Assembly: GCA_000996245.1 (NCBI GenBank)
Contig: LBYP01000002.1
Span: 5,352-69,351 of the forward strand
DNA: 64,000 nt
Direction of reading: 5' to 3'
From: Parcubacteria group bacterium GW2011_GWA2_40_23
Lineage (GTDB): Bacteria > Patescibacteriota > Patescibacteriia > UBA11705 > JABHMO01
Both the position numbers and the translations under genes were made by a program. A model generated the notes under the pieces. That model had not been told where the DNA came from and ran no database searches. It saw nothing but the letters and a program-made list of their open reading frames with translations. This document shows positions 348 to 29,640 of the stretch, piece by piece. Numbering within the stretch: the first letter of the stretch is position 1; each line of letters starts with the position of its first letter.

Positions 348-385
348 AAAAAAAGGAGGGTCGACGCACTGTAGCATCGACCCTC
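348..385 (-). terminator. Intrinsic terminator of unit A1
   Basis: Reverse strand: GAGGGTCGA-N12-TCGACCCTC (9-bp perfect stem) followed by CTTTTTTT. Confidence 0.75.
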
Positions 386-979
386 GTGAACATGTCTTTA
401 CCACCGCGACCTTGACGGGCTTGCGATCAGAACAGCCCCGATCTTGGTCCGGCATGGATCCTCGGGGAACCGGCGTCCCATAGATACTGGGACGCGATGG
501 AGCTACGTGAACCAGCTCGGATACCGCTTGCACATGGCAAGTTCTCCTTCTGCTGTGGCCGCGAGCGTGGTGCTCGTTCTTCGGCCTCGTTCTTGCTCCA
601 GAACCGAGTTCGTGTGGCACGTCGCGAGTTGAGCTCTCGCAGCGTGCCGTCAGAAGCCGAAGATGAGCGTACCGGAGTGGAGCCGCATGAAGCCTCCGTC
701 TGCGGAATTCTCGCATCCAATTTCGAACTTCGAACCGTGTTGATCTCTTGTTGCTTGGTGAACAGCCTGTTGCACTCGGTGTTCCGCGGACTTGCTCGAT
801 GAACACAGTCTACAACAAATGAGTTCTGCGGACTTGTCCTACACGGGCGGGGGACGTGCTCTGAGCATGCGCACCTCCATGTTGTGGAACCTTGAGAACC
901 AACGTGGTGTTGATGGCCAGAAGCCGATATTCGAACGAACGCGGCTTCTTTCTCGCTAACACCACAAAAGCGAGACGAT
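348..979 (-). ncRNA. Unit A1: ~630-nt GC-rich transcript without a credible long ORF (candidate structured RNA, or decayed/scrambled coding cassette)
   Basis: Bounded by promoter 986-1014 and terminator 348-385. Many local helices, e.g. GCGTCCCA-N7-TGGGACGC at 473-495, and GGCACG/CGTGCC with nested GCGAG/CTCGC at 616-648. No frame shows the G/C third-position bias of the coding islands. The longest ORF (327-806) is Arg-rich and reads through the terminator. GGAGG (878-874) + 5 nt + ATG (868) opens only a 9-codon ORF, MLRARPPPV. Confidence 0.45.
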
Positions 980-985
980 AAAAAT

Positions 986-1014
986 ATCCTATACTATTTA
1001 TAAACTAATGTCAA
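986..1014 (-). promoter_or_regulatory. Sigma70-type promoter of unit A1
   Basis: Reverse strand TTGACA (1014-1009), 17-nt spacer ttagtttataaatagta, TAGGAT (991-986). Confidence 0.6.
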
Positions 1015-1028
1015 GTTTTTGGCAAAGG

Positions 1029-1056
1029 AAAAAGCGGTCGAGATGAGTCGAACCGC
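1029..1056 (-). terminator. Intrinsic terminator of unit A2
   Basis: Reverse strand GCGGTTCGA-N6-TCGACCGC (one bulged base) followed by TTTTTCC. Confidence 0.65.
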
Positions 1057-1267
1057 TTCTGGATTACTTGCTCGCCACGCCGTGGCACGCCGCTTCGAGG
1101 GAATCCAACCCCGGAAAAGCCTGTCTGTGGTAAACACTAAGGGGCCTTTCGACCTTAGTGCTCTGGACACTCTTCCATAGATCCTCCATGGTGTTTGTGC
1201 GTGCGCGAATCGTGACCGAACAGGATCTCTGCGTTGCTTCGCCGTTGATACGGCTTGGCAGTCCAGC
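1029..1267 (-). ncRNA. Unit A2: ~240-nt GC-rich transcript (candidate sRNA; a 41-codon small ORF cannot be excluded)
   Basis: Promoter 1274-1302 and terminator 1029-1056. Helices include CACTAAGG-N10-CCTTAGTG (1135-1160). GGAGG (1187-1183) + 4 nt + ATG (1178) opens a 7-codon ORF, MEECPEH. An SD-less 41-codon ORF (ATG 1189 to TAA 1064, MEDLWKSVQSTKVERPLSVYHRQAFPGLDSLEAACHGVASK) ends just before the terminator stem. Confidence 0.45.
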
Positions 1268-1273
1268 ATGTAT

Positions 1274-1302
1274 ATAATAGCACAATAATAAAATTATGTC
1301 AA
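1274..1302 (-). promoter_or_regulatory. Sigma70-type promoter of unit A2
   Basis: Reverse strand TTGACA (1302-1297), 17-nt spacer taattttattattgtgc, TATTAT (1279-1274). Confidence 0.7.
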
Positions 1303-1342
1303 TAGCAGTTTTACTTATTTTTGAAAATAGTCTAATTTAAGC

Positions 1343-1379
1343 AAAAAAAGAAGGGGTACCGCGTGAGCAAATACCCCTT
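1343..1379 (-). terminator. Intrinsic terminator of unit A3
   Basis: Reverse strand AAGGGGTA-N13-TACCCCTT followed by CTTTTTTTGC. Confidence 0.75.
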
Positions 1380-1447
1380 AGAACCGTGCCACCATTACAG
1401 TGGCGAGATCATGGTGTCCTCCAGTAATGGGGAAGACTAAAGTGACT
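1343..1447 (-). ncRNA. Unit A3: ~100-nt GC-rich transcript (candidate sRNA / leader-peptide RNA)
   Basis: Promoter 1450-1478 and terminator 1343-1379. Two mutually exclusive helices: CCATTAC..GTAATGG versus GCCAC-N7-GTGGC. GGAGG (1422-1418) + 5 nt + ATG (1412) opens a 5-codon ORF, MISPL (stop 1397-1395). Confidence 0.45.
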
Positions 1448-1449: not shown

Positions 1450-1478
1450 ATTATTACATAAAACAGCTTATATGTCAA
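1450..1478 (-). promoter_or_regulatory. Sigma70-type promoter of unit A3
   Basis: Reverse strand TTGACA (1478-1473), 17-nt spacer tataagctgttttatgt, AATAAT (1455-1450). Confidence 0.6.
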
Positions 1479-2295: not shown

Positions 2296-3807
2296 ATGGA
2301 AAAATATTACATAACAACACCTATTTATTACGCTAATAGCAAGCCACATATTGGTCATGCTTATACGACGATAGTGGCCGATATTTTAGCGCGATATTAT
2401 CGTTTAAAATTAGGACAAGAAAATGTTTGGTTTTTAACGGGGACAGATGAACATGGTTCAAAAATTGCGCAGGTTGCAGAAAAAGAAGGCAAAGATCCTC
2501 AAACTTTTGTTGATGATGTTTCAGCTCTTTTTCAGTTGTCTTGGAAAAATTTGAATATTAGTAATAACGATTATATTCGCACGACAGAAAAAAGACATGA
2601 AGACGTCGTCACTGAGATCCTCACGAAATTGAAATCAGCTAAAACTCCACTTGGCAATGACTTTATTTATTCTGGTGATTATGAGGGTTTATATTGTGTC
2701 GGTTGTGAATCATACAAAAAGCCTGAAGATTTGGTAGACGATAAATGTCCAGATCATAACAAAGAACCAGAATTGCTTAAAGAAAGTAATTGGTATATTC
2801 GTTTGTCAGATTATGCCGAGATACTCAAAAATAAAATTCAAAACGATGAAATAAAAGTTTTGCCAGCCGATCGTAAAACAGAAGTTTTGTCATTTATCGA
2901 ACAAGGTTTGGAGGATGTGGCCATTAGTCGTCAACAAGTTAAATGGGGCATACCGGTACCATTCGACAAAGATCAAACTATATACGTTTGGGTCGATGCT
3001 CTTCTAAACTATATCTCAGCACTTGGTTATCCAAATGACGAAAAGTTTAAAAAATTTTGGCCAGCAAACACTCAACTCTTGGCAAAAGATATTTTAAAGT
3101 TTCATGCCATCATTTGGCCAGCGATGCTCATTGCGGCCGGCATCGAGGCACCCAAAGAACTTTTTATCCATGGTTATTTCACTATTGATGGTAAGAAAAT
3201 GAGTAAAACTATTGGTAATGTTATTGATCCAAATGATTTAGTCTCTGAGTTCGGAGTTGACGCCGCACGCTATTTAATCGTTTCACAATTTCCATTTGGA
3301 CAAGACGGTGACGTCAAAGCTGATGAATTTAAAGTAAAATATAATTCTGATCTTGCTAATGGTATCGGTAATTTAGTTAGTCGTGTAATTACGATGGCTG
3401 AAAAGTATTGCGATAATAAAATTCCAGCATTGAAATATACTGGCACTTTTAATTTAACCGCACTTTGGAAAAGAGTGGAACAAAATTATGTAGATTATAA
3501 GATTTTTGAGAACCTTAGAGAAATTCAAGAATTAATTAGCTGGGCTGACAATCATATTGCCGAAACTACGCCTTGGGCCAAGGCTAAAGAAGGGAAGGCA
3601 GCAGAAGTAAACCAAATCCTTTATAATTTAATTGAAGTCCTGAAACAACTTGCGGGGTTATTACTTCCGATACTTCCACAAACCGGAGCAGAGATTCTTA
3701 AACGTATAAATTTTGCTTCTACTGATATAGAATCAATTAAAACACTGAATAATCTCGACTCAAAAAAAACATTAGATAAAGGTGAGCCTTTATTCCTTAG
3801 AAAGTAG
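2296..3807 (+). CDS. metG: Methionyl-tRNA synthetase
   Basis: HIGH-type motif PHIGHAYT and KMSKS-type motif KMSKT. Length and N-terminus are typical of MetRS. Confidence 0.95.
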   Translation: MEKYYITTPIYYANSKPHIGHAYTTIVADILARYYRLKLGQENVWFLTGTDEHGSKIAQVAEKEGKDPQTFVDDVSALFQLSWKNLNISNNDYIRTTEKRHEDVVTEILTKLKSAKTPLGNDFIYSGDYEGLYCVGCESYKKPEDLVDDKCPDHNKEPELLKESNWYIRLSDYAEILKNKIQNDEIKVLPADRKTEVLSFIEQGLEDVAISRQQVKWGIPVPFDKDQTIYVWVDALLNYISALGYPNDEKFKKFWPANTQLLAKDILKFHAIIWPAMLIAAGIEAPKELFIHGYFTIDGKKMSKTIGNVIDPNDLVSEFGVDAARYLIVSQFPFGQDGDVKADEFKVKYNSDLANGIGNLVSRVITMAEKYCDNKIPALKYTGTFNLTALWKRVEQNYVDYKIFENLREIQELISWADNHIAETTPWAKAKEGKAAEVNQILYNLIEVLKQLAGLLLPILPQTGAEILKRINFASTDIESIKTLNNLDSKKTLDKGEPLFLRK

Positions 3808-9216: not shown

Positions 9217-10170
9217 ATGGCTGGTGGAACAAGAGAATTAAAACGTCGTATCAAATCTGTTGCTAGTACTCAAAAGGTAACTAAGGCAATGGAAATGGTC
9301 GCTGCATCAAAAATGCGTCGCGCCATTAATTCGGTTTTGGCTACACGCGATTACTCTAATCTTGCTTGGGCGACTATTATGAACTTGGCACAAAGAACAG
9401 ACTCGGCTTTGCATCCATTATTAGCCAAAAAAGATAAAGTCGAAAGTGTTTGCTTGATTCTAATCAGTTCAAACCGTGGACTTTGCGGTGGATTTAATAT
9501 GCAAGTTGTTCAAAAGGCTATTAACTCAATCAAAAAACACGAAGAGAATGTTAAAGTTACAGATGTAATTACCATGGGAACAAAGGGCCGAGACATTATT
9601 CGTGGTTTTAAATTTAATGTTGCAGCTGATTTTAAAAAACAAGATTTAACTTTAAGAGTTTCCGATGTTTACGCAGTAGCTCATTTGATCATAAAAGATT
9701 TTACTTCTGGGAAATACGATAAAGTTTTTGTGGCTTTTACAGATTTTGTTTCAACTTTAAAGCAAGAACCGCGCGTTAAACAATTATTACCGATCGATCA
9801 AGAACCAGATGAATATCTTGGTGTAGTTGGAAAGAGTGCAGGCGTTGGTACTACAAAAAAGTTTATTCAAGCCAAAGCTGAAAAATATTTGAAAAAAGGC
9901 GAATATTCTTATGAATATGTTTTCGAACCTAATGCTAAAACTGTTTTAGAAGAAATGTTGCCACGTTTAATCGAAACTCAGATCTATCAGGCTGTTTTGG
10001 AATCTGAAGCATCCGAACACAGTGCCAGAATGTTCTCTATGCGCAATGCTTCTGAAGCTGCTTCGGACATGATTAGCGATTTATCATTATCATATAACCG
10101 TGCTCGTCAAGCTGGTATTACGCAGGAAATTGCGGAAATCAGTTCTGCGGCTGAATCTTTAAAAAAATAA
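9217..10170 (+). CDS. atpG: F0F1 ATP synthase subunit gamma
   Basis: N-terminal LKRRIKSVxSTQKVTKAMEMVAASKMRRA and C-terminal ITQEIAEI motifs. Confidence 0.9.
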   Translation: MAGGTRELKRRIKSVASTQKVTKAMEMVAASKMRRAINSVLATRDYSNLAWATIMNLAQRTDSALHPLLAKKDKVESVCLILISSNRGLCGGFNMQVVQKAINSIKKHEENVKVTDVITMGTKGRDIIRGFKFNVAADFKKQDLTLRVSDVYAVAHLIIKDFTSGKYDKVFVAFTDFVSTLKQEPRVKQLLPIDQEPDEYLGVVGKSAGVGTTKKFIQAKAEKYLKKGEYSYEYVFEPNAKTVLEEMLPRLIETQIYQAVLESEASEHSARMFSMRNASEAASDMISDLSLSYNRARQAGITQEIAEISSAAESLKK

Positions 10171-13533: not shown

Positions 13534-13637
13534 CATATAAATATCAATTGTCTAGTAGAGGAGAATATGGATAATTTGTAATTCGTAAAATAATGTTTAA
13601 ATTTAGCTAAAATAAGTAAGTGTCCATATGATTCCTG

Positions 13638-13666
13638 TTGACAAACATAAGAAAGTATGTTATTGT
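13638..13666 (+). promoter_or_regulatory. Sigma70-type promoter of island B
   Basis: TTGACA (13638-13643), 17-nt spacer aacataagaaagtatgt, TATTGT (13661-13666). Confidence 0.6.
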
Positions 13667-13705
13667 TATGGCAATTGAACCTGTGCTACAACGATGGAGG
13701 AATCC

Positions 13706-13990
13706 ATGGATCTGATCGGATTGGACATGAAGGCTCGTCAGGCTCGGGAGAAGTTCACGGTCGTGACCAAGCTGGGTGATGCGGTCTGGACGCCGGCGGA
13801 GATCAACCGACTGGTGCACCAGTACAGAACCATCATCAGCACGCTTCCCAGGATGCCCTCCGTCGCGATTCTCGCGGGAGAGTACTCCAAGGACCAGCTC
13901 GTCGCGTTCCTCGGGACGGACAACTTCACCGTCGAGCTGATGGTCGGTCGCCAGAACCCCAAGCTGCCGTTCAGCGCTCCGATGCTCTGA
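13706..13990 (+). CDS. Island B1: 94-aa GC-rich protein of unknown function, paralog of B2
   Basis: GGAGGA ends 4 nt before ATG 13706. G/C-ending codons dominate. About 45% identity to B2 over ~67 aa (KFTVVT..G..VW..E..RL....PR..SVAI.AGE.SK...V..LGTD.F.VEL.V). Confidence 0.7.
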   Translation: MDLIGLDMKARQAREKFTVVTKLGDAVWTPAEINRLVHQYRTIISTLPRMPSVAILAGEYSKDQLVAFLGTDNFTVELMVGRQNPKLPFSAPML

Positions 13991-14020
13991 GCGCGGCAAG
14001 TTCGAAAGAGAGGAACGGAC

Positions 14021-14248
14021 ATGCTGGTTCTGTTGACTCCTGCCAAGTTCACCGTCGTGACCTTGTTCGGTTTTGGGGTGTGGCATAAGGACGAGGTTCA
14101 ACGTCTGGCGAACAGGCTGAGAGCCTGCGTCTACACGTATCCAAGGAGGCTTTCGGTCGCGATCATCGCGGGAGAGCACTCCAAGGCTTCGATCGTGGAC
14201 GTCCTCGGTACGGACGACTTCGGCGTCGAGCTGAAGGTCAAGTGCTAG
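14021..14248 (+). CDS. Island B2: 75-aa GC-rich protein, paralog of B1
   Basis: AGAGAGGAA SD-like motif 5-6 nt before ATG 14021; same conserved blocks as B1; followed directly by terminators. Confidence 0.7.
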   Translation: MLVLLTPAKFTVVTLFGFGVWHKDEVQRLANRLRACVYTYPRRLSVAIIAGEHSKASIVDVLGTDDFGVELKVKC

Positions 14249-14282
14249 AAACCAGTCACTCAAGGTTTCAAGAGGCGAGCAG

Positions 14283-14351
14283 CTTCGTAGTTGCTCGCCT
14301 TTTAAATTTTAGGAAATGAGACAACTCGTCTCTTTTTGTTTATTATGCTAA
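14283..14351 (+). terminator. Two tandem terminators closing island B
   Basis: AGGCGAGC-N12-GCTCGCCT + TTTTAAATTTT (14283-14320), then GAGAC-N5-GTCTC + TTTTTGTTT (14328-14351). Their outer halves, AAGAGGCGAGC and CTCGTCTCTTTTTGTTT, duplicate the host terminator at 13501-13532. Confidence 0.7.
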
Positions 14352-14364: not shown

Positions 14365-17337
14365 ATGAGCTTATTAGAATCATCAAACAAAGAGCAGCTT
14401 TCAGCTATTATGCATGAGGCTGGGCCTCAGCTGATCGTTGCCGGAGCGGGGACGGGCAAGACGCGAGTAATTACAGCCCGTATAGCTTATTTAATTACAG
14501 AAAAAAACATAAATGTCGACGAAATTCTGGCTTTGACTTTTACTGACAAAGCAGCCGAAGAAATGGAAGAACGTGTAGATAAAATGTTGCCTTATGGCTA
14601 TGTCGACTTGTGGATTTCAACTTTTCACTCCTTTTGTGACAAACTATTAAAACGCCACGCTCTCGATATTGGACTCTCTAACAATTATAAACTTATAAAC
14701 GAAACTGAGGCTTGGTTACTGATTAAAAAGAATTTAGCGCGTTTTGATTTGGATTATTACCGTCCGCTTGGTAATCCAACCAAATTTATTCATGCTTTGC
14801 TAAAACATTTTTCGCGTTGTAAAGATGAGGGCATTTCGGCCGAAGAATATTTGGAATTTGCTGATGGTTTAAAATTGGACTTGGATGTAACTGATTATGT
14901 AAAAAAATTAGATTTGCCAGAAGACTTTGCGGAACTGAAGAAAGAAGAAAAACAAGCGTTGCTCAAACAGGAAATTATTCGAATTAATGAAATCGCTAAG
15001 GCATATCACACATATCAACAAATATTAATCGAAAATGATTGCTTGGATTTTGGCGATTTGCACAATTACGCCATTAAACTTTTTAAAGATCGTCCCTTGA
15101 TTTTAGATAAATATCGACGTCAATTTAAATATATACTTGTCGATGAATTTCAGGACACAAATTTTGTTCAATATGAACTCATCAAGCTTTTAGCAGCTCC
15201 CAAAAATAATTTGACAGTGGTGGGGGATGATGACCAGTCAATTTATAAATTCCGAGGAGCTTCTATTAGTAATATCATGCAATTTAAAGAAGATTACCCA
15301 AACGCGCAGGAAGTTGTCTTAACGGAAAACTATCGATCGGCGCAGGAAATTTTAGATTTGTCATATAATTTTATTAAGCAAAATGATCCTAATCGGTTGG
15401 AAGCGAAGTTGAATATCAATAAAAAATTAAAATCGAATAAAACTGAGCAGGGAGTTATCGATCACAAACATTTTGAAACTATCGATGCTGAAGCGCAGTT
15501 TGTTATAAGTCAGATTCGAGAAATACAAAAAGTAACTCAGTGCGAGTGGAAACAATTTGCCATATTGGTACGTGCCAATGAAAGCGCTAATATTTTTATT
15601 AGTTATTTAGATTCCGCAAATATTCCATATCAGTTCTTAGCATTACGTGGATTGTATACGAAGCCAGTCATTGTTGATTTGCTCAACTACCTAAAGTTGT
15701 TAGATGATTATCATGAGGGAGCTTCGGTTTATCGATTGTTAAATTTCCCATGTTTCAAATTAAAAACTGATCAAATCATCAAAATTGTTCATTATGCAAA
15801 GCAAAAAAGTTTTTCATTGTACGACACGTTGAAGAAGATTGTTATAATTCCTGGTATTGAAATGGAAACAATAACTCAGGTTGGGAAAATATATGCTCAG
15901 GTTGAAGCTGATACTGCTTTGGCACAAAAGAAACGTCCGACCGAAGTCTTGCTAAATTTTTTATACACTTCCGGTTATTTAGAACACGTAAAAAATTTGG
16001 ACGAAAAAATTGCTAAAGAAAATTTAGATTATATCCAACAGTTTTTTCAAAAAGTTAAAGAGATAGAAACCACTTACGAAGATGCGCGCATTAAAGATAT
16101 AGTCGAGGTTTTTGATTTAGAATTGCAATCTGGCGAAGCTGGGCGATTGGCTTTTGATGTTGAAACAGGTCCAGACATGGTAAAGGTCATGACAGTGCAT
16201 GGATCAAAAGGTTTGGAGTTTGACTATGTTTTCTTGCCAAATCTTGTCGACCGTAAATTCCCAACAGACGAACGCAAAGAGGCTATCGAGATTCCAGCAG
16301 CCTTGATTGAAGAAAAACTGCCCGAAGGTAATTTCCATTTAGAAGAAGAACGCCGACTTTTTTATGTGGCGATGACTCGAGCGCGACGTGGTTTATTTTT
16401 TACATCGGCAGAGGATTATGGCGGAGTACGCAAAAAAAGGTTATCGAGATTTTTAATAGAAATGGGTTATAAAAAAGATTATGACATCCAATCGACTGAA
16501 ACTATTTTAATCAAGCCAAGTAAATCATCAGCAGTTGATAAATTTGTTTATGAATTACCAAAAAGATTTAGCTTTTCGCAAATTGCAACTTACGAAAAAT
16601 GTCCTTTACAATACAAATACGGAAATATTTTAAAAATCCCAGCTTTTGGCAGTCATTATTTTACTTTTGGTACAATTATCCACTCAACTTTGCAGAAATT
16701 TCTAGAAGAATCGTATCAAGTTAATAATAATGTTCAAGAAGATTTATTTAGCAATATAAAAAAGACGATTAAAAAGGGAACTTTGCCCTTGGATCGATTG
16801 TATCAAGTTTATGATGATGTTTGGTTTGATGATTGGTTCCAAGATCCTAAGCAGAAAGAAGAATATTATAAAAAAGGAAAAGCTTTGCTGAAAAGTTTTC
16901 ATGCTGATTTTAATTCAGAGTTACCAGAAGTAAGAAATCTCGAAATATCATTTAAATTGCCAGTCGGCCCATATTTCTTTTCTGGTAGAATTGATCGAGT
17001 CGATAATTTAGAGTCTGGTTTAGTGCAGATCATTGATTATAAAACCGGGCAAGCCAAGGATGATAAATTAACAACAGATGACAAACGTCAACTTTTATTT
17101 TATCAGATTGCGGCCGAGGAAGCCTTAAAGTTGAAAGTTGAAAAGATGACATACCATTATTTAGAAGAAAATAAGAAAATATCTTTTATGGGTAAAGAAA
17201 AAGACAAGGAAGAATTAAAGAAAAGATTTATTGAAGATATTGAATTGATCAAGGCACAGAAATTCGAAGCCACGCCAAGTCCTTATGTTTGTGGTAGTTG
17301 CGATTATCGAAATATTTGTGAGCATAAAAAATTGTAA
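14365..17337 (+). CDS. UvrD/PcrA-type superfamily-1 helicase fused to a C-terminal PD-(D/E)XK, Cas4/AddB-like 4-Cys nuclease
   Basis: Walker A GAGTGKT, motif II VDEFQDTN, C-terminal Cys cluster KCPLQ ... CGSCDYRNIC (CX2CX5C). Start at ATG 14365 (track start 14359 is TTG). Confidence 0.85.
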   Translation: MSLLESSNKEQLSAIMHEAGPQLIVAGAGTGKTRVITARIAYLITEKNINVDEILALTFTDKAAEEMEERVDKMLPYGYVDLWISTFHSFCDKLLKRHALDIGLSNNYKLINETEAWLLIKKNLARFDLDYYRPLGNPTKFIHALLKHFSRCKDEGISAEEYLEFADGLKLDLDVTDYVKKLDLPEDFAELKKEEKQALLKQEIIRINEIAKAYHTYQQILIENDCLDFGDLHNYAIKLFKDRPLILDKYRRQFKYILVDEFQDTNFVQYELIKLLAAPKNNLTVVGDDDQSIYKFRGASISNIMQFKEDYPNAQEVVLTENYRSAQEILDLSYNFIKQNDPNRLEAKLNINKKLKSNKTEQGVIDHKHFETIDAEAQFVISQIREIQKVTQCEWKQFAILVRANESANIFISYLDSANIPYQFLALRGLYTKPVIVDLLNYLKLLDDYHEGASVYRLLNFPCFKLKTDQIIKIVHYAKQKSFSLYDTLKKIVIIPGIEMETITQVGKIYAQVEADTALAQKKRPTEVLLNFLYTSGYLEHVKNLDEKIAKENLDYIQQFFQKVKEIETTYEDARIKDIVEVFDLELQSGEAGRLAFDVETGPDMVKVMTVHGSKGLEFDYVFLPNLVDRKFPTDERKEAIEIPAALIEEKLPEGNFHLEEERRLFYVAMTRARRGLFFTSAEDYGGVRKKRLSRFLIEMGYKKDYDIQSTETILIKPSKSSAVDKFVYELPKRFSFSQIATYEKCPLQYKYGNILKIPAFGSHYFTFGTIIHSTLQKFLEESYQVNNNVQEDLFSNIKKTIKKGTLPLDRLYQVYDDVWFDDWFQDPKQKEEYYKKGKALLKSFHADFNSELPEVRNLEISFKLPVGPYFFSGRIDRVDNLESGLVQIIDYKTGQAKDDKLTTDDKRQLLFYQIAAEEALKLKVEKMTYHYLEENKKISFMGKEKDKEELKKRFIEDIELIKAQKFEATPSPYVCGSCDYRNICEHKKL

Positions 17338-17370
17338 AAAAAGGGCCACGCAAACTTGTGTCTGCGTGGC
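17335..17370 (-). terminator. Terminator of island C (also sits directly after the helicase stop)
   Basis: Reverse strand GCCACGCA-N10-TGCGTGGC followed by CCCTTTTTTTT. The T-tract is present only in the minus orientation. Confidence 0.7.
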
Positions 17371-17396
17371 TCCTTGCGACGAGTTGTGACTCGGCG

Positions 17397-18377
17397 CTAG
17401 TTGGTGAGCACGTGGCTGATGTCCATGTCCGGACTGACGATCAGCTTCTGTGCCGTGTTCTCGCCGATGACCTCGATCGCCTCGTTCGGACCCGTACCCA
17501 GGTTCGGGATGAACCCGATCTGGATGTACGAGTACTGCTCGAGGGGATCGACGTCGCAGCGCACGTCGAAGGCCGTCGTGGTGCCCTTGGGTAGGAAGAT
17601 GTCCGTCAGGTCATGGAAGACGAGCTGCGCGTTCCATCCCTCGGTGTTTACGTAGGGTTGACCCTGGTAGGCCAGGGTGTGGCCACCCGAGATCAGGCTG
17701 CAGTTGCGCACCTTCTCGAAGTGGTCCCCGGTCATCATCATCGACAGCGTGACCTCGGTGAGAACGCCGTCCTCGGCGTAGGCCGTGTCTTCGGCGTCGA
17801 CCATCAGGTAGAACGTGAACAAGTGGACCTGCGAACCTTCGACGAGCAGGTTGCTGGTTTCCTTCTTCCAGACCATGACGGTCGAGAATTGCGGCTCCAT
17901 GTACGGCGCGCAGACTTCTTCGACGGAGCAGTAGAACGTACGGTTGCCCCTGGCGATGGCGTCGTAGAAGGCTTGGAAGTTGCTGTGCCAGACGTTCATC
18001 ATCGCGATCTGCTTCTGCGCCGCGATCCGTCGCAGCTTGTAGGTCGGGATCATGGCGATGGGGTATTTGGGGTCTCCCGCCAAGGCCAGCTTGATCTTCC
18101 AGGTGTTGGTCGTCGCGTTCTGCGTCGCCTTGGCCAGGAACTGGCCCTCGTACTGGAAGTAGTAGCTGATGTTGTCGGTGAAGTTGGTCCACCCGACGCA
18201 GTCGGTGCCGTACCAGTCCGGCAACTGGCCGGTCAGGTTGAAGTAGTCGATGCTTTCCTGGTTGTACGTCTCGGCGACGTACTTGAGGTCGGCGAAGGTC
18301 TGGGGCGGACCGCCCCCGGCGTACGCGGCACTCGAGAAGCACAGGACGGCGAGCAGGGCGATGAGGGTCTTCTTCAT
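17397..18377 (-). CDS. Island C: secreted 326-aa GC-rich protein of unknown function
   Basis: Signal peptide MKKTLIALLAVLCFSSAAYA. GGAGGA lies 7 nt before the ATG. Near-exclusive NNC/NNG codon usage (checked codon by codon). Several Cys residues; no motif I can name. Confidence 0.8.
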   Translation of the reverse strand: MKKTLIALLAVLCFSSAAYAGGGPPQTFADLKYVAETYNQESIDYFNLTGQLPDWYGTDCVGWTNFTDNISYYFQYEGQFLAKATQNATTNTWKIKLALAGDPKYPIAMIPTYKLRRIAAQKQIAMMNVWHSNFQAFYDAIARGNRTFYCSVEEVCAPYMEPQFSTVMVWKKETSNLLVEGSQVHLFTFYLMVDAEDTAYAEDGVLTEVTLSMMMTGDHFEKVRNCSLISGGHTLAYQGQPYVNTEGWNAQLVFHDLTDIFLPKGTTTAFDVRCDVDPLEQYSYIQIGFIPNLGTGPNEAIEVIGENTAQKLIVSPDMDISHVLTN

Positions 18378-18447
18378 CTCGGATTCCTCCTTCGGACGTT
18401 TCGAACCTTAGATCGATGGTGTACATCACCAATCTCTCTTTGGCACC

Positions 18448-18476
18448 ATTCTAGCATGTTTTTAATAAATTGTCAA
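18448..18476 (-). promoter_or_regulatory. Sigma70-type promoter of island C
   Basis: Reverse strand TTGACA (18476-18471), 17-nt spacer atttattaaaaacatgc, TAGAAT (18453-18448); ~64-nt leader. Confidence 0.7.
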
Positions 18477-18499
18477 ACCTATTTTCATCGTTTTGCGAG

Positions 18500-18520
18500 C
18501 CTGCCTGCCGGCCAGGCAGG
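18500..18520. other. Isolated GC hairpin ~25 nt upstream of the island C -35 box
   Basis: CCTGCCTG-ccggc-CAGGCAGG, 8-bp perfect stem, no T-tract on either strand. Confidence 0.4.
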
Positions 18521-18661
18521 GAGCACTTTCGTTAAAAAGCGACGTGGCAATCTCTAATTCGATTTCTAATTAATCAAATCAATAGGTTATACATTTTTAT
18601 TCGTAAATTTAGCAAAATACTAGATACTGTCTAAGCGAACCTAACTGCAAATCGAGGATAC

Positions 18662-18696
18662 TAATCATGATAATCATGAAAATCATAGTTAATCAT
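18662..18696 (-). repeat. Phased array of four ATGATTA-like heptamers abutting the island D terminator
   Basis: taatcat at 18662, 18671, 18690 and aaatcat at 18680 (period 9-10 bp). Homologous to the array at 299-344. Confidence 0.6.
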
Positions 18697-18699
18697 GGC

Positions 18700-18735
18700 A
18701 AAAAAGAGCCCCACCGTTCGCGACGAACGGTGGGG
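18700..18735 (-). terminator. Intrinsic terminator of island D
   Basis: Reverse strand CCCCACCGTTCG-tcg-CGAACGGTGGGG (12-bp perfect stem) followed by CTCTTTTTT. Confidence 0.8.
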
Positions 18736-18740
18736 CAGGG

Positions 18741-19364
18741 CTAGAAGTTCCAGACCAGGCGCAGGTACAGCACGTGGTCACCCGCGATCTCCGGCGTGAA
18801 GTCGTAGGCGACCCAGATTCGGCCCGCGCCGAGCAAGATCGAGGGGCCGATGGCCGCCTCGTCGAACGTCTTCTCGGAGAAGAAGTTCTCCTGGACGATG
18901 CCGAACCCAGCGATGTTGCCTGGCTTCATCCAGTCGAGGGTGGTCAGCGTGTAGTAGTTCCGCTGCACGTGCCCCTTGTCGCCGTCGACAGGGAAGTAGA
19001 CGTCGCCCTCGACGCACAGGAGCAGGTCGCTTGGCAAGGGCTGCGTGAGCCAGATGCTCGCGAGAGCGGACATGCCGCCGTCGTTGGTCATCCAGAGACC
19101 TCCCAGGAGCTTGAGGTTCGTCTTCGTCGACAGGACGCTCATCTCCGGCCCGAAGTAGCCGAAGATCATGGAGTTGCCGCGCATTGACACCAGGCCGGTG
19201 GCGTGGGCGTAGATGCCGCCCGTGATGTTCTCGCTGAGCGTGAACGGGGAGAAGGTTCGGCCCAGGGTGACCAGGAACTGGCCGTTGGACTCGACCTTGG
19301 CCTCGGCGGCCGTGGGGATGATCATCGCACACAGCAACAGGATCACGAGCAGGAAGCGCTTCAT
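18741..19364 (-). CDS. Island D: 207-aa secreted protein with outer-membrane beta-barrel-like features
   Basis: Start placed at MKRF (ATG 19364) with GGAGG 5 nt upstream. Signal peptide MKRFLLVILLLCAMIIPTAAEA. Gly/aromatic-rich alternating pattern. C-terminus YLRLVWNF has hydrophobic residues at positions -1, -3, -5, -7 and a terminal Phe (classical OMP beta-signal). Confidence 0.7.
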   Translation of the reverse strand: MKRFLLVILLLCAMIIPTAAEAKVESNGQFLVTLGRTFSPFTLSENITGGIYAHATGLVSMRGNSMIFGYFGPEMSVLSTKTNLKLLGGLWMTNDGGMSALASIWLTQPLPSDLLLCVEGDVYFPVDGDKGHVQRNYYTLTTLDWMKPGNIAGFGIVQENFFSEKTFDEAAIGPSILLGAGRIWVAYDFTPEIAGDHVLYLRLVWNF

Positions 19365-19409
19365 CGAAGCCTCCAAAGTGGTGTGACGTCCCGTGAAACA
19401 GGACATTCT

Positions 19410-19437
19410 AATTTATCATAAATAATAAAAAAGTCAA
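19410..19437 (-). promoter_or_regulatory. Promoter of island D
   Basis: Reverse strand TTGACT (19437-19432), 16-nt spacer, TGaTAAATT extended -10 (hexamer 19415-19410). The -35 box ends 1 nt from the ATG of the divergent host gene at 19439. Confidence 0.55.
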
Positions 19438-19438
19438 G

Positions 19439-19762
19439 ATGCAAGGCATTAGTGGTATACTAAAATCAACTTTCAATAAAAGAAGTGTCCTCAGCAAACA
19501 AGTGCAATCTGGGATGATTGTTGAGTTTGTTAATGAACTAATTCATGAATACTGGGGCAAAAAGGGCGCTGAACAGGCAAAGGCTAAATTTATAAAAAAT
19601 AAAATTTTAACTATATTTACTGTAAATGCAGGCATGTCGCAGGAAATTAAATTTAAACAAAATAAAATATTAGAAACAGTTAACACTAGGTTTGATGAGC
19701 GGGTACTTAATCAATTAAAAATCGTTGCCGGCGGAATTGACAAAGGCGATGATATACCGTAA
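19439..19762 (+). CDS. DUF721/DciA-like small protein (host-type composition except the last ~13 codons)
   Basis: 107 aa with pattern W..VVG-like EYWGKKGAEQAKAKFIKNKILTIFTVNAGMSQEIKF, typical of DUF721. The 3' end, GTTGCCGGCGGAATTGACAAAGGCGATGATATACCGTAA, is GC-richer and contains the island E -35 box. Confidence 0.5.
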   Translation: MQGISGILKSTFNKRSVLSKQVQSGMIVEFVNELIHEYWGKKGAEQAKAKFIKNKILTIFTVNAGMSQEIKFKQNKILETVNTRFDERVLNQLKIVAGGIDKGDDIP

Positions 19763-19765
19763 AAC
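19737..19765 (+). promoter_or_regulatory. Candidate promoter of island E embedded in the 3' end of the DUF721 gene
   Basis: TTGACA (19737-19742), 17-nt spacer aaggcgatgatataccg, TAAAAC (19760-19765, overlaps the stop codon). Confidence 0.45.
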
Positions 19766-19797
19766 GAAGTGATGGCCTTTCCATCAAGGAGGTTCCC

Positions 19798-20115
19798 ATG
19801 GATGCACGACAAAAGGTCGTGGCAGTGTTCGATCTTCCGCACGGTGAAGGTCAGGTCGATCTGATGGTCGACATGGCACTTGAGTCCAGCTGGACTGGCC
19901 AAGGAATCGATACTTCGTACTTCATGTTCCACAAGCCGCACTGCGGCGGTCCCATGCGGCCGATCAAGGTGGCGGACAAGAAGATGGTTCTGTACTGCAG
20001 CGGTTGCGTGTTGCGTCTTCAGCTTCTGATCATGAAACTGCCTACGAACCTGGGCGAACTCGGTGAAGCGATCAACGAGACCTGCACGCATTCGGATCTG
20101 CCCTCACGTTTCTAA
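19798..20115 (+). CDS. Island E: 105-aa GC-rich protein with Zn-ribbon-like Cys/His spacing
   Basis: AAGGAGG lies 5 nt before the ATG. HKPHCGGP ... YCSGC (H/C-x..-CxxC). G/C-ending codons. Confidence 0.7.
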   Translation: MDARQKVVAVFDLPHGEGQVDLMVDMALESSWTGQGIDTSYFMFHKPHCGGPMRPIKVADKKMVLYCSGCVLRLQLLIMKLPTNLGELGEAINETCTHSDLPSRF

Positions 20116-20127
20116 TCGAGATAATAT

Positions 20128-20162
20128 CAGGCCTTCCTAGCACTAGGAGGCCTGGTTTTTTA
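20128..20162 (+). terminator. Intrinsic terminator of island E
   Basis: CAGGCCTTCCTAG-ca-CTAGGAGGCCTG (one bulge) followed by GTTTTTTAT. Confidence 0.75.
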
Positions 20163-20201
20163 TGTTGAAAAGCTCTAGCTTCTGTGATAGAATATCTGCA
20201 T

Positions 20202-20585
20202 ATGAGTATAGGGCGTTTTTTCCTAGTTTTAGGTCTGGCTACAGGTCTGTGTTGGTTGGCCTGGATTGCTGTTTTATTTTTTATGAATCCAGCAGAAAAT
20301 AGTCCCGTGGCTCTAATCTTATTTTATTTAAGTCTTTGTTTGTCCTTAATTGGTACCTTTTTATTCATCGGGTATCTTGTTAGAGGTTTAACTAACCAAA
20401 CCGAAATGCCGTATAAGCATGTTAAAGCAGCTTCAAGGCAGGCAGTCTTATTTACCGTACTCATTGTTCTAGCCTTGATGCTACAAAGTTATCGTTTTTT
20501 AACTTGGTGGAATTTGTTAATTTTGGTGGCCTTACTTGGGTTCGTAGAATTATTCTTTATTTCATACAAAAAATATAATAAATAA
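20202..20585 (+). CDS. Polytopic membrane protein, unknown function (leaderless-style start)
   Basis: Four hydrophobic helices. Extended -10 TGaTAGAAT (20185-20193) lies 8 nt before ATG 20202. The track start 20184 is a GTG inside the promoter. Confidence 0.6.
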   Translation: MSIGRFFLVLGLATGLCWLAWIAVLFFMNPAENSPVALILFYLSLCLSLIGTFLFIGYLVRGLTNQTEMPYKHVKAASRQAVLFTVLIVLALMLQSYRFLTWWNLLILVALLGFVELFFISYKKYNK

Positions 20586-20588
20586 AAT

Positions 20589-22274
20589 ATGAGACAGTCA
20601 AAGTTATTTGGTAAAACACAAAAAGAAACACCATCTGATGCTGTAGCCGAAAGTCAGAAGCTTCTACATCGAGCAGGTTATGTGCGCGATTCTGTGGCCG
20701 GTAGATATTATTTTTTACCATTGGGAATGCGCGTACATGAAAAAATAGAAAAAATTATCCGTGAAGAAATGGATCGCACCGGCGCGGAACAAATATTAAC
20801 ACCAACCTTACATCAACTAGAATTATGGAAAGAAACAAATCGTACAGACACCGCTGGCTTTGAGTTGATGAAAGTAAAAGATAGAAATGGGGCGGAGTTC
20901 GCTTTGGGTGGAACGGCCGAGGAAATGATTGTTGATGTGGTGCGAAAGTTTAATATCAGTTACAAAGATTTACCTTTTAATATTTATCAATTCTCAAATA
21001 AGTTTAGAGATGAAATGCGTGCTCGCGGTGGCCTTTTGCGAACTCGAGAATTCATCATGAAAGACGCTTACTCTTTTCATGAAACAGAAGCTGATTTTAA
21101 AAAAGAATATGAAAAGATGTGGAAGGCATACGAAACAATTTTTGCTCGTATGGGGCTAAAAACTGTTGCGATTGAATCTGATAATGGTTACATTGGTGGT
21201 GAATATTGTCACGAATTTATTGTTGAATCTGCCAGTGGAGAAAGTAAAGCTTTGACTACAGAGGATGGAACTTATGCTGCACACGAAGAAGTGGCAAAAT
21301 TCAAACGAGATAATAAAAATTTAGATGAGTCTCTGGGTGGAATGATTGAAGTCGAGGCCAAGAGAGAAAACACCATGCAAGCTGGTGTGGAATTGCATAA
21401 GTTACCTTTATGGCAACAAATTAAGAATGTTTTATTTGTGACAGAAAAAGGGAGATTTATTTTGGCTGTGATCCGTGGTGATTTAGCCGTCAATGAGTTA
21501 AAGCTTGTGCACGCAGTTGGTGCGTTGATATTAAGAGCAGCAACGGATGAAGAAATTCGATCAATCGGAACAGAACCTGGCTTTATTGGTCCTGTAGGGC
21601 TTGATCATAAAAAAGTCACAGTTGTTGGTGATTTATCGTTACGAACAGCTGTTAACTTTTGTACTGGTGCTAATAAACAATATTGTGACTTACAAAACGT
21701 AAATATTGATCGTGACTTTAATGTAGACAAAGAAGCTGACATCGCCTTGGCGGAAGCAGGCTTTTTAAGTGAATCCGGCAAAGAGTTACGAGAGATCAAA
21801 GGTATTGAGGTTGGAAATATTTTTCAACTTGGTTATCATTATTCCAAATTAATGAATGCAACTTTTACAGGTAAAGATGGTAAAGAAGAATTTTACTATA
21901 TGGGCTGTTATGGAATAGGTTTGGGGCGAACTATGGCCACAATTGTAGAAATGCATAATGATGAAAAAGGTATAATTTGGCCAGAAGCTGTCGCACCTTT
22001 TCAAGTACATTTACTGACATTGGGCGAAGACGAGAAGGTGATGAAAGCATCCGAACAATTATATGAGGAGTTGTTGGCGGCAGGTATTGAGGTGTTGTTT
22101 GATGATCGCGATCTAAGCGCTGGAATCAAATTAAAAGATAGTGATCTTATTGGTTTGCCAAAGCGTATTGTCGTAAGCACTAAAACCCTGGAGCAAAATA
22201 AAGTTGAATTGAAATTACGATCAGAGGACGAAATAGAACTGGTTGACATTAGTTCAATCGCAAAAAAGGTGTAA
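20589..22274 (+). CDS. proS: Prolyl-tRNA synthetase (bacterial type with insertion domain)
   Basis: MRQSKLFGKTQKE... N-terminus, class II motifs (REFIMKDAYSF, GCYGIGLGR), 561 aa. Confidence 0.95.
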   Translation: MRQSKLFGKTQKETPSDAVAESQKLLHRAGYVRDSVAGRYYFLPLGMRVHEKIEKIIREEMDRTGAEQILTPTLHQLELWKETNRTDTAGFELMKVKDRNGAEFALGGTAEEMIVDVVRKFNISYKDLPFNIYQFSNKFRDEMRARGGLLRTREFIMKDAYSFHETEADFKKEYEKMWKAYETIFARMGLKTVAIESDNGYIGGEYCHEFIVESASGESKALTTEDGTYAAHEEVAKFKRDNKNLDESLGGMIEVEAKRENTMQAGVELHKLPLWQQIKNVLFVTEKGRFILAVIRGDLAVNELKLVHAVGALILRAATDEEIRSIGTEPGFIGPVGLDHKKVTVVGDLSLRTAVNFCTGANKQYCDLQNVNIDRDFNVDKEADIALAEAGFLSESGKELREIKGIEVGNIFQLGYHYSKLMNATFTGKDGKEEFYYMGCYGIGLGRTMATIVEMHNDEKGIIWPEAVAPFQVHLLTLGEDEKVMKASEQLYEELLAAGIEVLFDDRDLSAGIKLKDSDLIGLPKRIVVSTKTLEQNKVELKLRSEDEIELVDISSIAKKV

Positions 22275-22276
22275 AA

Positions 22277-22311
22277 CCCCGCACCAGAAAGTATTCTCTT
22301 TCGGTTCGGGG
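22277..22311. repeat. GC hairpin of the dispersed family, downstream of proS
   Basis: CCCCGCACC-N17-GGTTCGGGG followed by CAAG. Confidence 0.5.
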
Positions 22312-22367
22312 CAAGTAAAAACAAAAATCAAAGTAATAATTTATTATTGATTTTTATTTTAAATAGT

Positions 22368-23423
22368 ATGTTAAGAAGATTGTTAAATAGATTCTCCAAG
22401 AAAATCGGTATTGATCTTGGAACATCAAATACAACTATCGCCTTGCAGGACAAGGGGATTGTTATTCGTGAGCCATCGGTTGTGGCCATTAATAATCGTT
22501 TAGATCAAATTATTGCCGTGGGCGAAGAGGCTAGTAAGATGATTGGTAAGAATCCAAAATATATTACCTTGGCTTATCCTTTGGTTAATGGTGTTATCTC
22601 TGATTTTGAGGTAACTGAAAAGATGTTCAAGTATTTTTTTGATAAGATATTTCAGGAAAACTTTAATTTTACAGCTAGACCCTCGGTAATTATTAGTATT
22701 CCGCTTGATGTTACAGAAGTTGAAAAGAAAGCTGTTGAAGATGCTGCCCTGGGTGCAGGTGCTGGGAAAGTTTTTTTGGTTGAAGAAGTTATGGCTGCAG
22801 CTATTGGCGCGCGCTTACCGATTAACGATGCTTCTGGTAGCATGATTATTAATTTGGGTGGTGGCAAGACCGAAATTGCAGTTATTTCTTTGCATGGTGT
22901 TGTAATTTCGAAGTCTTTGAAATTAGCTGGCGAAGAATTAAATAAAAATATTATTCAATACGCTCGTGATCGTTTTAACCTACTTATTGGAGAAAAAAAT
23001 GCTGAAGATATAAAAATTAAAATTGGTTCAGCATTCGAACAGGGTGAGTCTATGTCTGTAGAAATGCGTGGACGTGATTTAATCAGTGGTTTGCCACGAG
23101 AAATTATTATCACTGATTATCAAGTTAGGGAAGCGATCGCCAGTTCTATCCACAATATAATTGATGCTATAAAAAGTGTGCTTGAAGTAACCCCGCCGGA
23201 GTTGGTAGCTGATATTTTCGAACGAGGTATTGTACTTTGCGGCGGTGCAGCGCAATTGCGTGGCATGGAAAAAATTATTTCGAAGGAAACTGAAATTCCA
23301 GTCAGAGTTGCAGATGATCCAACGACTTGTACTATACGCGGCGTAATGGTTTTGTTGGATGATGACAATTTACTCAAAGATATTTTATTGCCTTCTGCTA
23401 ACGAAGAAAAAGTAGTTAGATAA
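22368..23423 (+). CDS. mreB: Rod-shape protein MreB
   Basis: Actin-fold phosphate-1 motif GIDLGTSNT. Start at ATG 22368 (track start is TTG). Confidence 0.9.
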   Translation: MLRRLLNRFSKKIGIDLGTSNTTIALQDKGIVIREPSVVAINNRLDQIIAVGEEASKMIGKNPKYITLAYPLVNGVISDFEVTEKMFKYFFDKIFQENFNFTARPSVIISIPLDVTEVEKKAVEDAALGAGAGKVFLVEEVMAAAIGARLPINDASGSMIINLGGGKTEIAVISLHGVVISKSLKLAGEELNKNIIQYARDRFNLLIGEKNAEDIKIKIGSAFEQGESMSVEMRGRDLISGLPREIIITDYQVREAIASSIHNIIDAIKSVLEVTPPELVADIFERGIVLCGGAAQLRGMEKIISKETEIPVRVADDPTTCTIRGVMVLLDDDNLLKDILLPSANEEKVVR

Positions 23424-23424
23424 T

Positions 23425-24770: not shown

Positions 24771-24771
24771 T

Positions 24772-26808: not shown

Positions 26809-26841
26809 AAAATATATTTTGTTTGTTTGTTTGTGGATAAC

Positions 26842-26916
26842 TTGACTTTAAGCCCATATTTGTTATATTTAAATCATAAGGAATAAAACCAGGTCTAAAC
26901 GACCTGTATTTAATTT
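26842..26916 (+). promoter_or_regulatory. greA promoter plus leader hairpin with T-tract (possible attenuator)
   Basis: TTGACT (26842-26847), 16-nt spacer, TGtTATATT (hexamer 26864-26869), then CAGGTC-taaac-GACCTG (26890-26906) followed by TATTTAATTT, 10 nt before the greA ATG. Confidence 0.5.
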
Positions 26917-26925
26917 AGTAGTATT

Positions 26926-27390: not shown

Positions 27391-27402
27391 GATCAAATAA
27401 GG

Positions 27403-29639: not shown

Positions 29640-29640
29640 A

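Follow-up and report, generated by a model that had tools for sequence, protein, structure and literature searches.

Putative small RNA genes with Shine-Dalgarno-led mini-ORFs upstream of rsmI in a clade of Parcubacteria

The rdgB-rsmI intergenic region

We analysed a window of 64,000 nucleotides of contig LBYP01000002.1 (Parcubacteria group bacterium GW2011_GWA2_40_23), the metagenome-assembled genome of an uncultured member of the candidate phyla radiation (CPR). Positions 187-1533 of this window separate two divergent genes, rdgB/Ham1, which starts at 186 on the minus strand, and rsmI, which starts at 1534 on the plus strand. These 1.35 kb include three blocks at 50-64% GC, against 38% GC for the genome. 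We treat the blocks, named A1, A2 and A3, as three separate transcription units because each has, on the minus strand, a near-consensus promoter at its 5' end and a stem-loop with a T-run at its 3' end (Table 1). As judged from their sequence, they are autonomous small RNA genes. All three contain strong Shine-Dalgarno (SD) sequences followed by start codons that open very short open reading frames (ORFs), and these mini-ORFs are the subject of the present work.

The layout is simplest in A3, the small RNA of the cluster, where the SD is followed by a five-codon ORF, a hairpin and, some 20 nt further on, the terminator. A2 is the 'ME' RNA, and A1 is a long RNA with three micro-cistrons, called modules below. 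Only the A1 terminator was called by the terminator scan; those of A2 and A3 were read from sequence and folds. Whole-unit fold z-scores, terminators included, are modest (-3.5 for A3, -2.0 and -2.4 for the other two units). Downstream of A3 and of A2 lies the promoter of the next unit, not a gene. The A1 terminator lies 163 nt from rdgB, which is on the same strand and has an apparent leaderless-type -10 box of its own just ahead of its ATG. Gene callers report nothing in the three units, and wrong frames in the adjacent GC-rich islands. A short motif, CAAGUCCGC(A/G)GAAC, occurs twice in A1 just 3' of the module 1 stop (781-838, minus strand), and the related UUCCGCAGA is found just upstream of the module 2 SD.

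Table 1. Positions in the window of the features of the three units and of the single-gene GC-rich cassettes (peptides written without stop)
Feature	Positions	Strand	Remarks
A3 promoter	1450..1478	-	TTGACA, 17 nt spacer, AATAAT, TG extension
A3 transcript	1340..1444	-	~105 nt, ends approximate (~1444-1340); from promoter and T-run
A3 SD GGAGG	1418..1422	-	paired in predicted fold with upstream anti-SD GUCUUCC
A3 mini-ORF	1395..1412	-	ATG ATC TCG CCA CTG TAA, MISPL; ATG 1412-1410, TAA 1397-1395; SD-ATG gap 5 nt
A3 hairpin	1388..1404	-	GCCACU/GGUGGC, stop UAA in loop; predicted fold
A3 intrinsic terminator	1343..1379	-	AAGGGGUA...UACCCCUU then U7; sequence and fold
A2 promoter	1274..1302	-	TTGACA, 17 nt spacer, TATTAT
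A2 transcript	1024..1268	-	~245 nt, ends approximate
A2 SD GGAGG	1183..1187	-	gap to ATG 4 nt
A2 mini-ORF	1155..1178	-	MEECPEH; ATG 1178-1176, TAA 1157-1155
A2 hairpin	1132..1163	-	5' arm GCACUAAGG contains stop codon, 3' arm CCUUAGUGU; predicted fold
A2 intrinsic terminator	1027..1059	-	stretch AUCCAGAAGCGGU common to A2 and L083 u1
A1 promoter	986..1014	-	TTGACA, 17 nt spacer, TAGGAT
A1 transcript	348..980	-	~630 nt, ends approximate (~980-348)
A1 module 1	839..878	-	SD GGAGGUG 878-872 (GGAGG 878-874, 5 nt to ATG), ATG 868-866, TAG 841-839, MLRARPPPV; diverged copy
A1 module 2	650..697	-	GGAGG 697-693, 4 nt, ATG 688, TGA 652-650, MRLHSGTLIFGF; diverged copy
A1 module 3	503..549	-	AAGGAG 549-544, 8 nt, ATG 535, TAG 505-503, MCKRYPSWFT; canonical family member
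A1 intrinsic terminator	349..385	-	12-bp stem then U7; called by terminator scan
GC-rich cassette	13630-14300		single gene; GC of the eight cassettes 0.52-0.68
GC-rich cassette	17340-18470		single gene
GC-rich cassette	18690-19430		single gene
GC-rich cassette	19740-20160		single gene
GC-rich cassette	29650-29910		single gene
GC-rich cassette	45060-46790		single gene
GC-rich cassette	46790-47520		single gene
GC-rich cassette	62290-62700		single gene

The possibility that the window is an artificial chimera was ruled out, because independent ENA and JGI contigs match the units and the coding islands at 100% identity. Two independent assemblies are 100% identical over positions 1-2200, and a JGI contig is 100% identical over 15180-30304, which includes four of the GC-rich coding islands. 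Since independent assemblies contain them, these islands are not artefacts.

The SDs of the units stand out in this genome. In the 42 AT-rich host ORFs that reach 120 aa or more (e.g. those starting at 1534, 31468 and 51586), the stretch from -16 to -4 never contains an SD, not even a 4-mer. Many host ORFs have a TAnAAT (-10-like) box 6-9 nt ahead of the ATG, and the host mRNAs look leaderless. The pattern GGAGG-N4-9-ATG is found 14 times on the two strands of the window, six times at the start of a gene of a GC-rich island and four times in A1-A3. Because host ORFs lack SDs and the sites lie mostly in islands and units, GGAGG followed by a start codon is, in this genome, a mark specific to the GC-rich islands.

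Mini-ORFs and their conservation

The first-pass annotation of this DNA had pointed to three SD-ATG sites on the minus strand, one per unit, at 878/868, 1187/1178 and 1422/1412. These sites and their mini-ORFs are exact, but two more modules of A1, at 697/688 and 549/535, had been overlooked. The sense strand of the three units holds four GGAGG-N4-5-ATG sites, for a mean of 0.022 in 20,000 dinucleotide-preserving shuffles. The count never reached four in these shuffles, nor did A1, A2 and A3 ever all have a site at once; the antisense strand of the units has no such site. The earlier estimate of about 0.03 expected sites, and its corollary that chance does not account for them, is thus borne out. 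It had also been noted that the leaders (111, 89 and 33 nt) fall in the range of those of the coding islands (26-111 nt), and they do. The sequence said to be shared by A1 and A2 around the site, CATGGAGG...CAGAGCAC, is present in both, but the similarity is not significant by blastn at E<=1.

Homologous loci were fetched from other species through relatives of RsmI, and eight species were compared in all. A GC-rich region lies upstream of rsmI in L083 and in the mutually identical L084-87 (RsmI 83% identical in both cases), in L089 (69%), L101 (68%, partial locus), L097/98 (67%), L104 (66%), L105 (65%) and L099/100 (64%). There is no such region in L088 (RsmI 92%), where the rdgB-rsmI spacer counts 65 nt, or in L090-92 (82%), where it counts 183 nt. 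The loci with the region are built of promoter-to-terminator units on the minus strand, and their flanking genes are rdgB/Ham1, an N6_N4 methyltransferase gene, rsmI, a NUDIX gene and metG. The cluster is found at the same locus in seven related species (L083, L084, L089, L097, L099, L104 and L101). The window, L089, L104 and L099 all show the succession of small RNA, 'ME' RNA and long RNA, with MPKRADATAFP in place of the ME-type ORF in the middle unit of L099. The long RNA is always upstream of rdgB, or of the methyltransferase gene and rdgB, and on the same strand. Blastn detects no similarity between the units of the window and those of L083 and L084. Yet the SD-start-mini-ORF modules, whose presence and frame in homologs the first-pass annotation had proposed to check, are kept in every cluster-bearing species except L105, which has no clear module and one doubtful 10-codon ORF. 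Among species representatives of GTDB retrieved through RsmI, the closest are 58-59% identical (Falkowbacteria-like and other Patescibacteria) and modules were found in none of 80 loci. In L099 an extra short unit (3480-3650, minus strand) is a second copy of the long RNA's 3' end with its terminator (there are two occurrences of ...TCGAACCGCCCTCTTTTTTT).

Across all families there are 28 SD-led modules, each with GGAGG, AGGAG or a related core 3-9 nt ahead of an ATG, GTG or TTG. All 28 ORFs stop within 13 codons, in RNAs where stop triplets are rare (0.031 per triplet, 0.012 in A1), which gives P ~5e-14 for 28 short frames out of 28. In A1, three of the seven stop triplets of all three frames are those of mini-ORFs. 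From these frequencies, it is selection that appears to hold the mini-ORFs short.

The long RNAs (L083 u2, L084 u2, L089 u3, L097, L099 u3 and L104, besides A1) carry two to three paralogous SD-led micro-cistrons of 7-13 codons, with the consensus M-x(0-2)-R-[YF]-[PT]-S-G-x-x-stop. The peptides are (TTG)RRCFPSGFF and MRRRYPSGDT in L083; MSRRYPSGCPPGV and MRRRYPSGCT in L084; (GTG)KIRYPSGDT, (GTG)TFRFPSGFD and MHFRYPSHFL in L089; MRVRHPSGFV, MQRRFPSGGT and MTFRFPNWFF in L099; (GTG)HWP, (GTG)RYTSGFP and (GTG)YTSGFD in L097; and MRRFTSGFL, MRRYPSSPY and MRRYPSGFC in L104 (non-ATG starts in parentheses). The N-terminus is variable, with 0-2 residues between Met and Arg, and so, most of all, are the last two residues before the stop, while the distance from the Ser to the stop is three codons with a single exception. 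In A1 only module 3 is canonical. Module 1 has a PP-x-V C-terminus (PPPV) like that of module 1 of L084 (MSRRYPSGCPPGV), module 2 keeps R-x-x-S-G and has lost the usual stop position, and the two look like diverging paralogs.

Several observations suggest that these micro-cistrons are coding. MAFFT gives a convincing alignment of the long RNAs only at the mini-ORF, which is also the sole repeated unit recovered by a repeat finder in L089 and L104. The combination of SD, start and R[YF]PS-xxx-stop occurs only in these RNAs in 1.03 Mb of sequence read in six frames. In eleven 10-codon modules, those of one RNA being paralogs, the ratio of nonsynonymous to synonymous changes (pN/pS) at codons 4-8 amounts to 0.34 when read in frame; the two other frames give 1.45 and 0.92. 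Entropy in the long-RNA modules is 1.13 bits at third positions, against 0.53 at first and 0.50 at second positions, and the invariant Ser is encoded by AGC, AGT, TCC and TCA, i.e. with switching between AGY and UCN. This looks like frame-specific purifying selection of the coding type. The suggestion that micro-peptide genes are present is therefore supported for A1, since seven related species conserve the family of its modules; however, the peptide then put forward, MLRARPPPV, is a diverged copy, and the canonical one, at 535-503, had been missed.

The two shorter RNAs tell a different story, since here the peptides are not conserved. The A2 family (L083 u1, L089 u2, L104 u2 and L097 u3, besides A2) has the ORFs MEECPEH, MEKLSQKR, MEYSLRAT, MEKFG and (GTG)MERPDPGSLRN, with nothing in common beyond 'ME'. 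These ORFs run into a hairpin and stop in its 5' arm (in L104 there is an in-frame stop in the hairpin loop). The stem is altered on both arms between species: that of the window (Table 1) is CGUUAGG/CCUAACG in L083, CGUAGAGG/CCUCUACG in L089 and CGCUAAGG/CCUUAGCG in L104. The A3 family comprises positional homologs in L089 u1, L099 u1 and L104 u1. Its ORFs are MISPL, MRRPG, MRRQG, MGL and, in L084, a bare AUG-UAG, and they are not conserved beyond 'MRR-G'. A hairpin of 4-6 bp comes next, with the stop codon in its loop and a stem of species-specific sequence, UCCGGG/CCCGGA in L089 and GGCC/GGCC in L104, like that of the window, in predicted folds; the CAAGG/CCUUG stem of L099 was seen by eye only and is absent from its minimum free energy (MFE) and centroid folds. 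In such predicted folds the stop-holding hairpins covary between species. What is conserved in A2 and A3 is thus a strong SD with a start codon near the 5' end and a hairpin holding the stop, not a peptide.

Two observations on these families stand apart. The start-stop of L084 (u1, 9824-9839, minus strand) has the form GGAGG-N5-AUG-UAG where other species have ORFs of 3-5 codons, and encodes no peptide. The 'ME' RNAs of L089 (9178-9603), L104 (4405-4722) and L105 (3905-4328), all on the minus strand, have a common downstream core of ~150 nt with several compensatory pairs (e.g. UAUCCGGCG...UAGCGC..ACGGGCU.GGAA), which may form a separate structured RNA domain; A2 of the window is shorter and shows loose similarity only. 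MAFFT and RNAalifold on whole long RNAs and on their 5' domains gave no convincing consensus fold, as there were too few sequences and they have diverged too far. Apparent compensatory pairs, noticed by eye in the 5' domain of A1, L083 and L084, could not be confirmed.

The RNAs and the peptide motif match no described family. At the gathering threshold Rfam 15 matched neither the window nor any of seven related loci; in E-value mode, applied to three clusters, it gave only chance-level matches, at E<=10 or E<=1. ARAGORN found neither tRNA nor tmRNA, and the longest ORFs inside the units have no match in Pfam. By blastn the units have no similarity to the rest of the window, to 80 rsmI loci of Patescibacteria, to phage genomes or to plasmids. 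A degenerate module pattern had four matches in JGI metagenomes, the known contig L084 and three by chance (L093, an animal-like contig, and L094 and L095, inside genes), and one in IMG/VR, by chance and inside a gene. The family thus appears restricted to a narrow clade. A full-text search of 8 million papers for 'RYPSG' returned nothing relevant. The 64 kb window as a whole has no tRNA gene according to ARAGORN and no Rfam family.

Readings of the mini-ORFs

The explanation that we find best, and rather probable, is that the locus holds three independently transcribed small RNA genes with genuine, selected ribosome-binding sites, A1 being a polycistronic messenger for micro-peptides and A2 and A3 being RNAs on which the loading of ribosomes acts in cis. 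What the sequences show is the anatomy of the units, its conservation, selection of the coding type and ORFs that are shorter than chance would make them; from this we infer that the mini-ORFs are translated and that their peptides, or the loading of ribosomes, have a role. The cluster is conserved ahead of rsmI within a single clade of Parcubacteria/ABY1-like CPR bacteria; under this explanation, its GGAGG-start sites would be selected ribosome-binding sites and its frames would be kept short by selection. A1 would encode two to three copies of a peptide of 8-13 residues, in cistrons separated by GC-rich structured spacers. In A2 and A3, a ribosome loaded at the SD would have to open the stop-holding hairpin; by analogy with known systems, the effect is most likely in cis and would bear on how the RNA folds, how it terminates or how stable it is. 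Since the last two residues and the N-terminus are variable, a peptide product fits A1 somewhat better than a signal for arrest at termination.

A number of points weigh against this explanation. Transcription and translation are predicted from sequence in an organism that is uncultured, and a working anti-SD at the 3' end of the 16S is assumed for a host with SD-less genes. The comparison covers just eight species, and at this locus the close relatives L088 (1-420) and L090-92 (L090 2191-2374) lack the cluster, so it is dispensable or mobile. The pN/pS comparisons are not independent, because modules within one RNA are paralogs, and the R-F-P codons (CGC UUC CC) can partly pair with the module's own SD. 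No peptide exporter, modifying enzyme or target is near the locus or known. Finally, the SDs are mostly paired in predicted folds, with a mean unpaired probability of ~0.25 against ~0.4 for the whole RNA. Their partner is either an upstream CUCC/UUCC tract (in A3 and in module 1 of A1, L083 and L084) or a pyrimidine tract within the module's own ORF. Initiation may thus be structurally gated or weak, if these folds are right.

The mini-ORFs could instead be cis-acting leader or arrest peptides, in which the R-[YF]-P-S-G chain, or PPP/PPG in module 1, stalls the ribosome. The stalled ribosome would remodel the RNA and control the read-through of the terminator into rdgB or the methyltransferase-rdgB operon or, alternatively, the stall would merely park ribosomes on an abundant RNA. 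We think this unlikely. Leader attenuators and arrest peptides, such as the erm/cat leaders, TnaC and SecM/RAPP, do share with these RNAs the short SD-led ORFs in a structured RNA upstream of a terminator. The distance from motif to stop is fixed while N-terminal length varies, and two species have strong stall motifs in module 1, RPPPV in the window and CPPGV in L084, PPP and PPG being EF-P-dependent. The invariable position of the long RNA ahead of rdgB or of the methyltransferase gene and rdgB also speaks for it, as do the frequent local hairpins of the SDs with upstream or in-ORF pyrimidine tracts and the UAG stop of 12 of 15 long-RNA modules outside L104. Yet L104 uses TAG, TGA and TAA, which brings the count to 13 of 18. 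The two residues before the stop are the most variable, which is unusual for termination-arrest peptides such as TnaC. The motif is unlike arrest motifs such as RAGP or RAPP, and to our knowledge R-[YF]-P-S-G has not been described as one. The terminators are strong, with no obvious alternative antiterminator: stable terminators of 8-12 bp appear in the MFE and centroid folds, where a search that was not exhaustive saw no competing helix involving the ORF region. Besides, rdgB has its apparent -10 box, and A3 and A2 lead into another promoter and have no regulated gene in their transcripts. The earlier suggestion of leader or cis-acting ORFs nevertheless remains plausible for A2 and A3, whose homologs keep the SD, the start and the stop-carrying hairpin and not the peptide.

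That the GGAGG elements are not translated at all, and form a sponge or decoy for a CsrA-like protein or for the anti-SD of the 30S subunit with the short ORFs as by-products, seems to us very doubtful. The RNAs do hold several very strong SD-like motifs each, up to AAGGAGGUGAU, and in a host whose genes lack SDs, SD-rich RNAs could act on the SD-led messages of the islands. The start-stop of L084 yields no peptide, and start-stop sites of E. coli bind ribosomes without product (10.1101/520783). But each of the 28 modules has a start codon 3-9 nt after its SD and closes its frame within 13 codons, and a sponge would not account for the frame-specific selection of coding type or for the AGY/UCN switching at Ser. 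Sponge RNAs of the Csr/Rsm type display many GGA motifs in hairpin loops and need neither start codon nor ORF. Here there are just one to three motifs per RNA, mostly paired, each a full GGAGG with a start and a closed, frame-conserved ORF. Least credible is the view that the units are decayed or scrambled GC-rich cassettes, whose promoter, leader, SD and start survive while nonsense and frameshift mutations produced the short ORFs. This view was raised in the first-pass annotation and draws on the neighbouring coding cassettes, which share the architecture of a TTGACA-17 promoter, a leader of 26-111 nt, a GGAGG and a terminator, and also on the long open frames on both strands of A1 and the degenerate look of its modules 1 and 2 against the family consensus. 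It is largely refuted, since A1-A3 have no three-base periodicity (GC by codon position is flat, at 0.54/0.55/0.61 in A1, against a third-position GC content, GC3, of 0.79-0.95 in five coding islands, real island genes having 0.8-0.95), the long ORFs of the units match nothing in Pfam, and units, mini-ORFs, short stops and architecture persist at this locus even in species whose RsmI is only 64% identical, with stop positions maintained under purifying selection.

How do the three RNA genes of our preferred explanation compare with known systems? The microcin C gene mccA is a 7-codon ORF on a short abundant RNA where ribosome binding triggers termination and gives exceptional stability (PMC4231749), and among MccA-type peptides ORF length is conserved (PMC6495379). 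The RNAs described here are similar in the tiny SD-led ORF, the short transcript and the intrinsic terminator just downstream. However, MccA ends in Asn, whereas the last residue of these mini-ORFs is V, F, T, H, L, D, G, R, P, C, Y or a lone Met; the sole homolog ending in Asn, that of L104 u2 (11 aa), is isolated. MccA is moreover a substrate for the products of the adjacent mccB-E genes, whereas neither an mccB (ThiF-like adenylyltransferase) gene nor genes for export or immunity adjoin these loci, and MccA-type peptides conserve length and not sequence, whereas the long RNA has two to three cistrons with a conserved internal motif, in a CPR host. Because the C-terminal Asn and mccB-E are missing, we claim that these RNAs may work like mccA, not that they are members of its family. 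A second analogy is the STAB-SD of cry mRNAs, a very strong 5' SD whose bound ribosome stabilises the RNA (PMC4113751), along with the hbs mRNA of B. subtilis, where ribosomes initiating at a strong SD protect from degradation (PMC5737220). What is alike is the very strong SD close to the 5' end, where in those stable mRNAs a bound 30S or 70S holds off RNase J1/Y. Yet STAB-SD has no start codon and hbs is a normal gene, whereas here a start at 3-9 nt opens a closed mini-ORF, and the peptide sequence of the long RNA appears to be under selection. The dual-function small RNAs that encode peptides, e.g. RNAIII/hld and SgrS/SgrT, are likewise structured and have their own promoter and terminator and one or more SD-led small ORFs, but their peptides count 17-50 aa and they have base-pairing or toxin-antitoxin roles, whereas here we find 1-13 codons and tandem paralogs. 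In B. subtilis, yrzI/spyTA is a polycistronic small-peptide mRNA (PMC12067863).

Small RNAs with small ORFs, and micro-peptide genes, are thus of a kind already known. What is new is the tandem arrangement of conserved decapeptide cistrons on one structured RNA, the syntenic cluster of three RNAs and their presence in a genome otherwise devoid of SDs. If translated, the mini-ORFs would be among the smallest conserved genes known, with 7-13 codons in the long RNA and 1-5 codons in the companion RNAs, in a group, the CPR or Patescibacteria, where almost nothing is known on small RNAs or small peptides. One may go further and regard the micro-cistrons as ribosome-engaging modules and not as sources of peptide: on an abundant, structured RNA, perfect SDs would capture the ribosome and the motif, at its fixed distance from the (mostly UAG) stop, would hold it, making a CPR RNA that parks ribosomes or senses the state of translation. 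This is quite unlikely in our opinion; if true, the RNA would possibly balance SD-led translation, i.e. that of foreign GC-rich cassettes, against the leaderless translation of the host. In any case, this one genome is split between SD-less, leaderless-looking host genes and GGAGG-using GC-rich promoter-to-terminator cassettes, both coding and non-coding. The split offers a concrete way into the expression of acquired genes by CPR episymbionts, and into the question of whether SD-led translation forms a regulated channel of its own.

GC-rich coding islands

The coding cassettes of the window sit between AT-rich housekeeping genes and reach GC3 values of 0.95. Their promoters have TTGACA-17 in six cases of eight; the island at 18690-19430 has TTGACT-16, and upstream of 62290-62700 the match was anchored on a start coordinate that is wrong. 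The cassettes have leaders of 26-111 nt and intrinsic terminators, with GGAGG as SD in five, AAGGAG in one and GGGAG in one. The so-called morons of phages are promoter-gene-terminator units of deviant composition, and the islands described here, coding and non-coding, resemble them in being autonomous promoter-to-terminator units unlike the neighbouring genes. The difference is that they lie between chromosomal housekeeping genes and not in a prophage, and that the small RNA cluster is syntenic across species instead of sporadic.

The insertion of GC-rich cassettes seems to be a general feature of the clade that varies between species, since L084 (2971-3580) and L089 (2781-3240) have other GC-rich coding cassettes on the minus strand between bacA and a nucleoside triphosphate (NTP)-transferase gene, which are missing between the same genes in the species of the window, where the two are adjacent. 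At 17397-18377 (minus strand) the window encodes a secreted-looking protein of 326 aa with no relative but itself among 5.8 billion proteins. Over the same island, the gene caller of the public contig L106 picked a wrong frame of 271 aa, from which it follows that genes of GC-rich islands are mis-annotated in databases. A single cassette holds two tandem paralogous ORFs (13706-13990 and 14021-14248, plus strand) of 94 and 75 aa, without match in Pfam, that share KFTVVT...AI(L/I)AGE(Y/H)SK...LGTD(N/D)F.VEL. The island protein at 18741-19364 (minus strand) has a signal peptide and ends in ...VWNF, which we take to resemble the C-terminal signature of outer-membrane beta-barrels, odd as this would be for a CPR bacterium. 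The resemblance hints at transfer from a diderm GC-rich donor.

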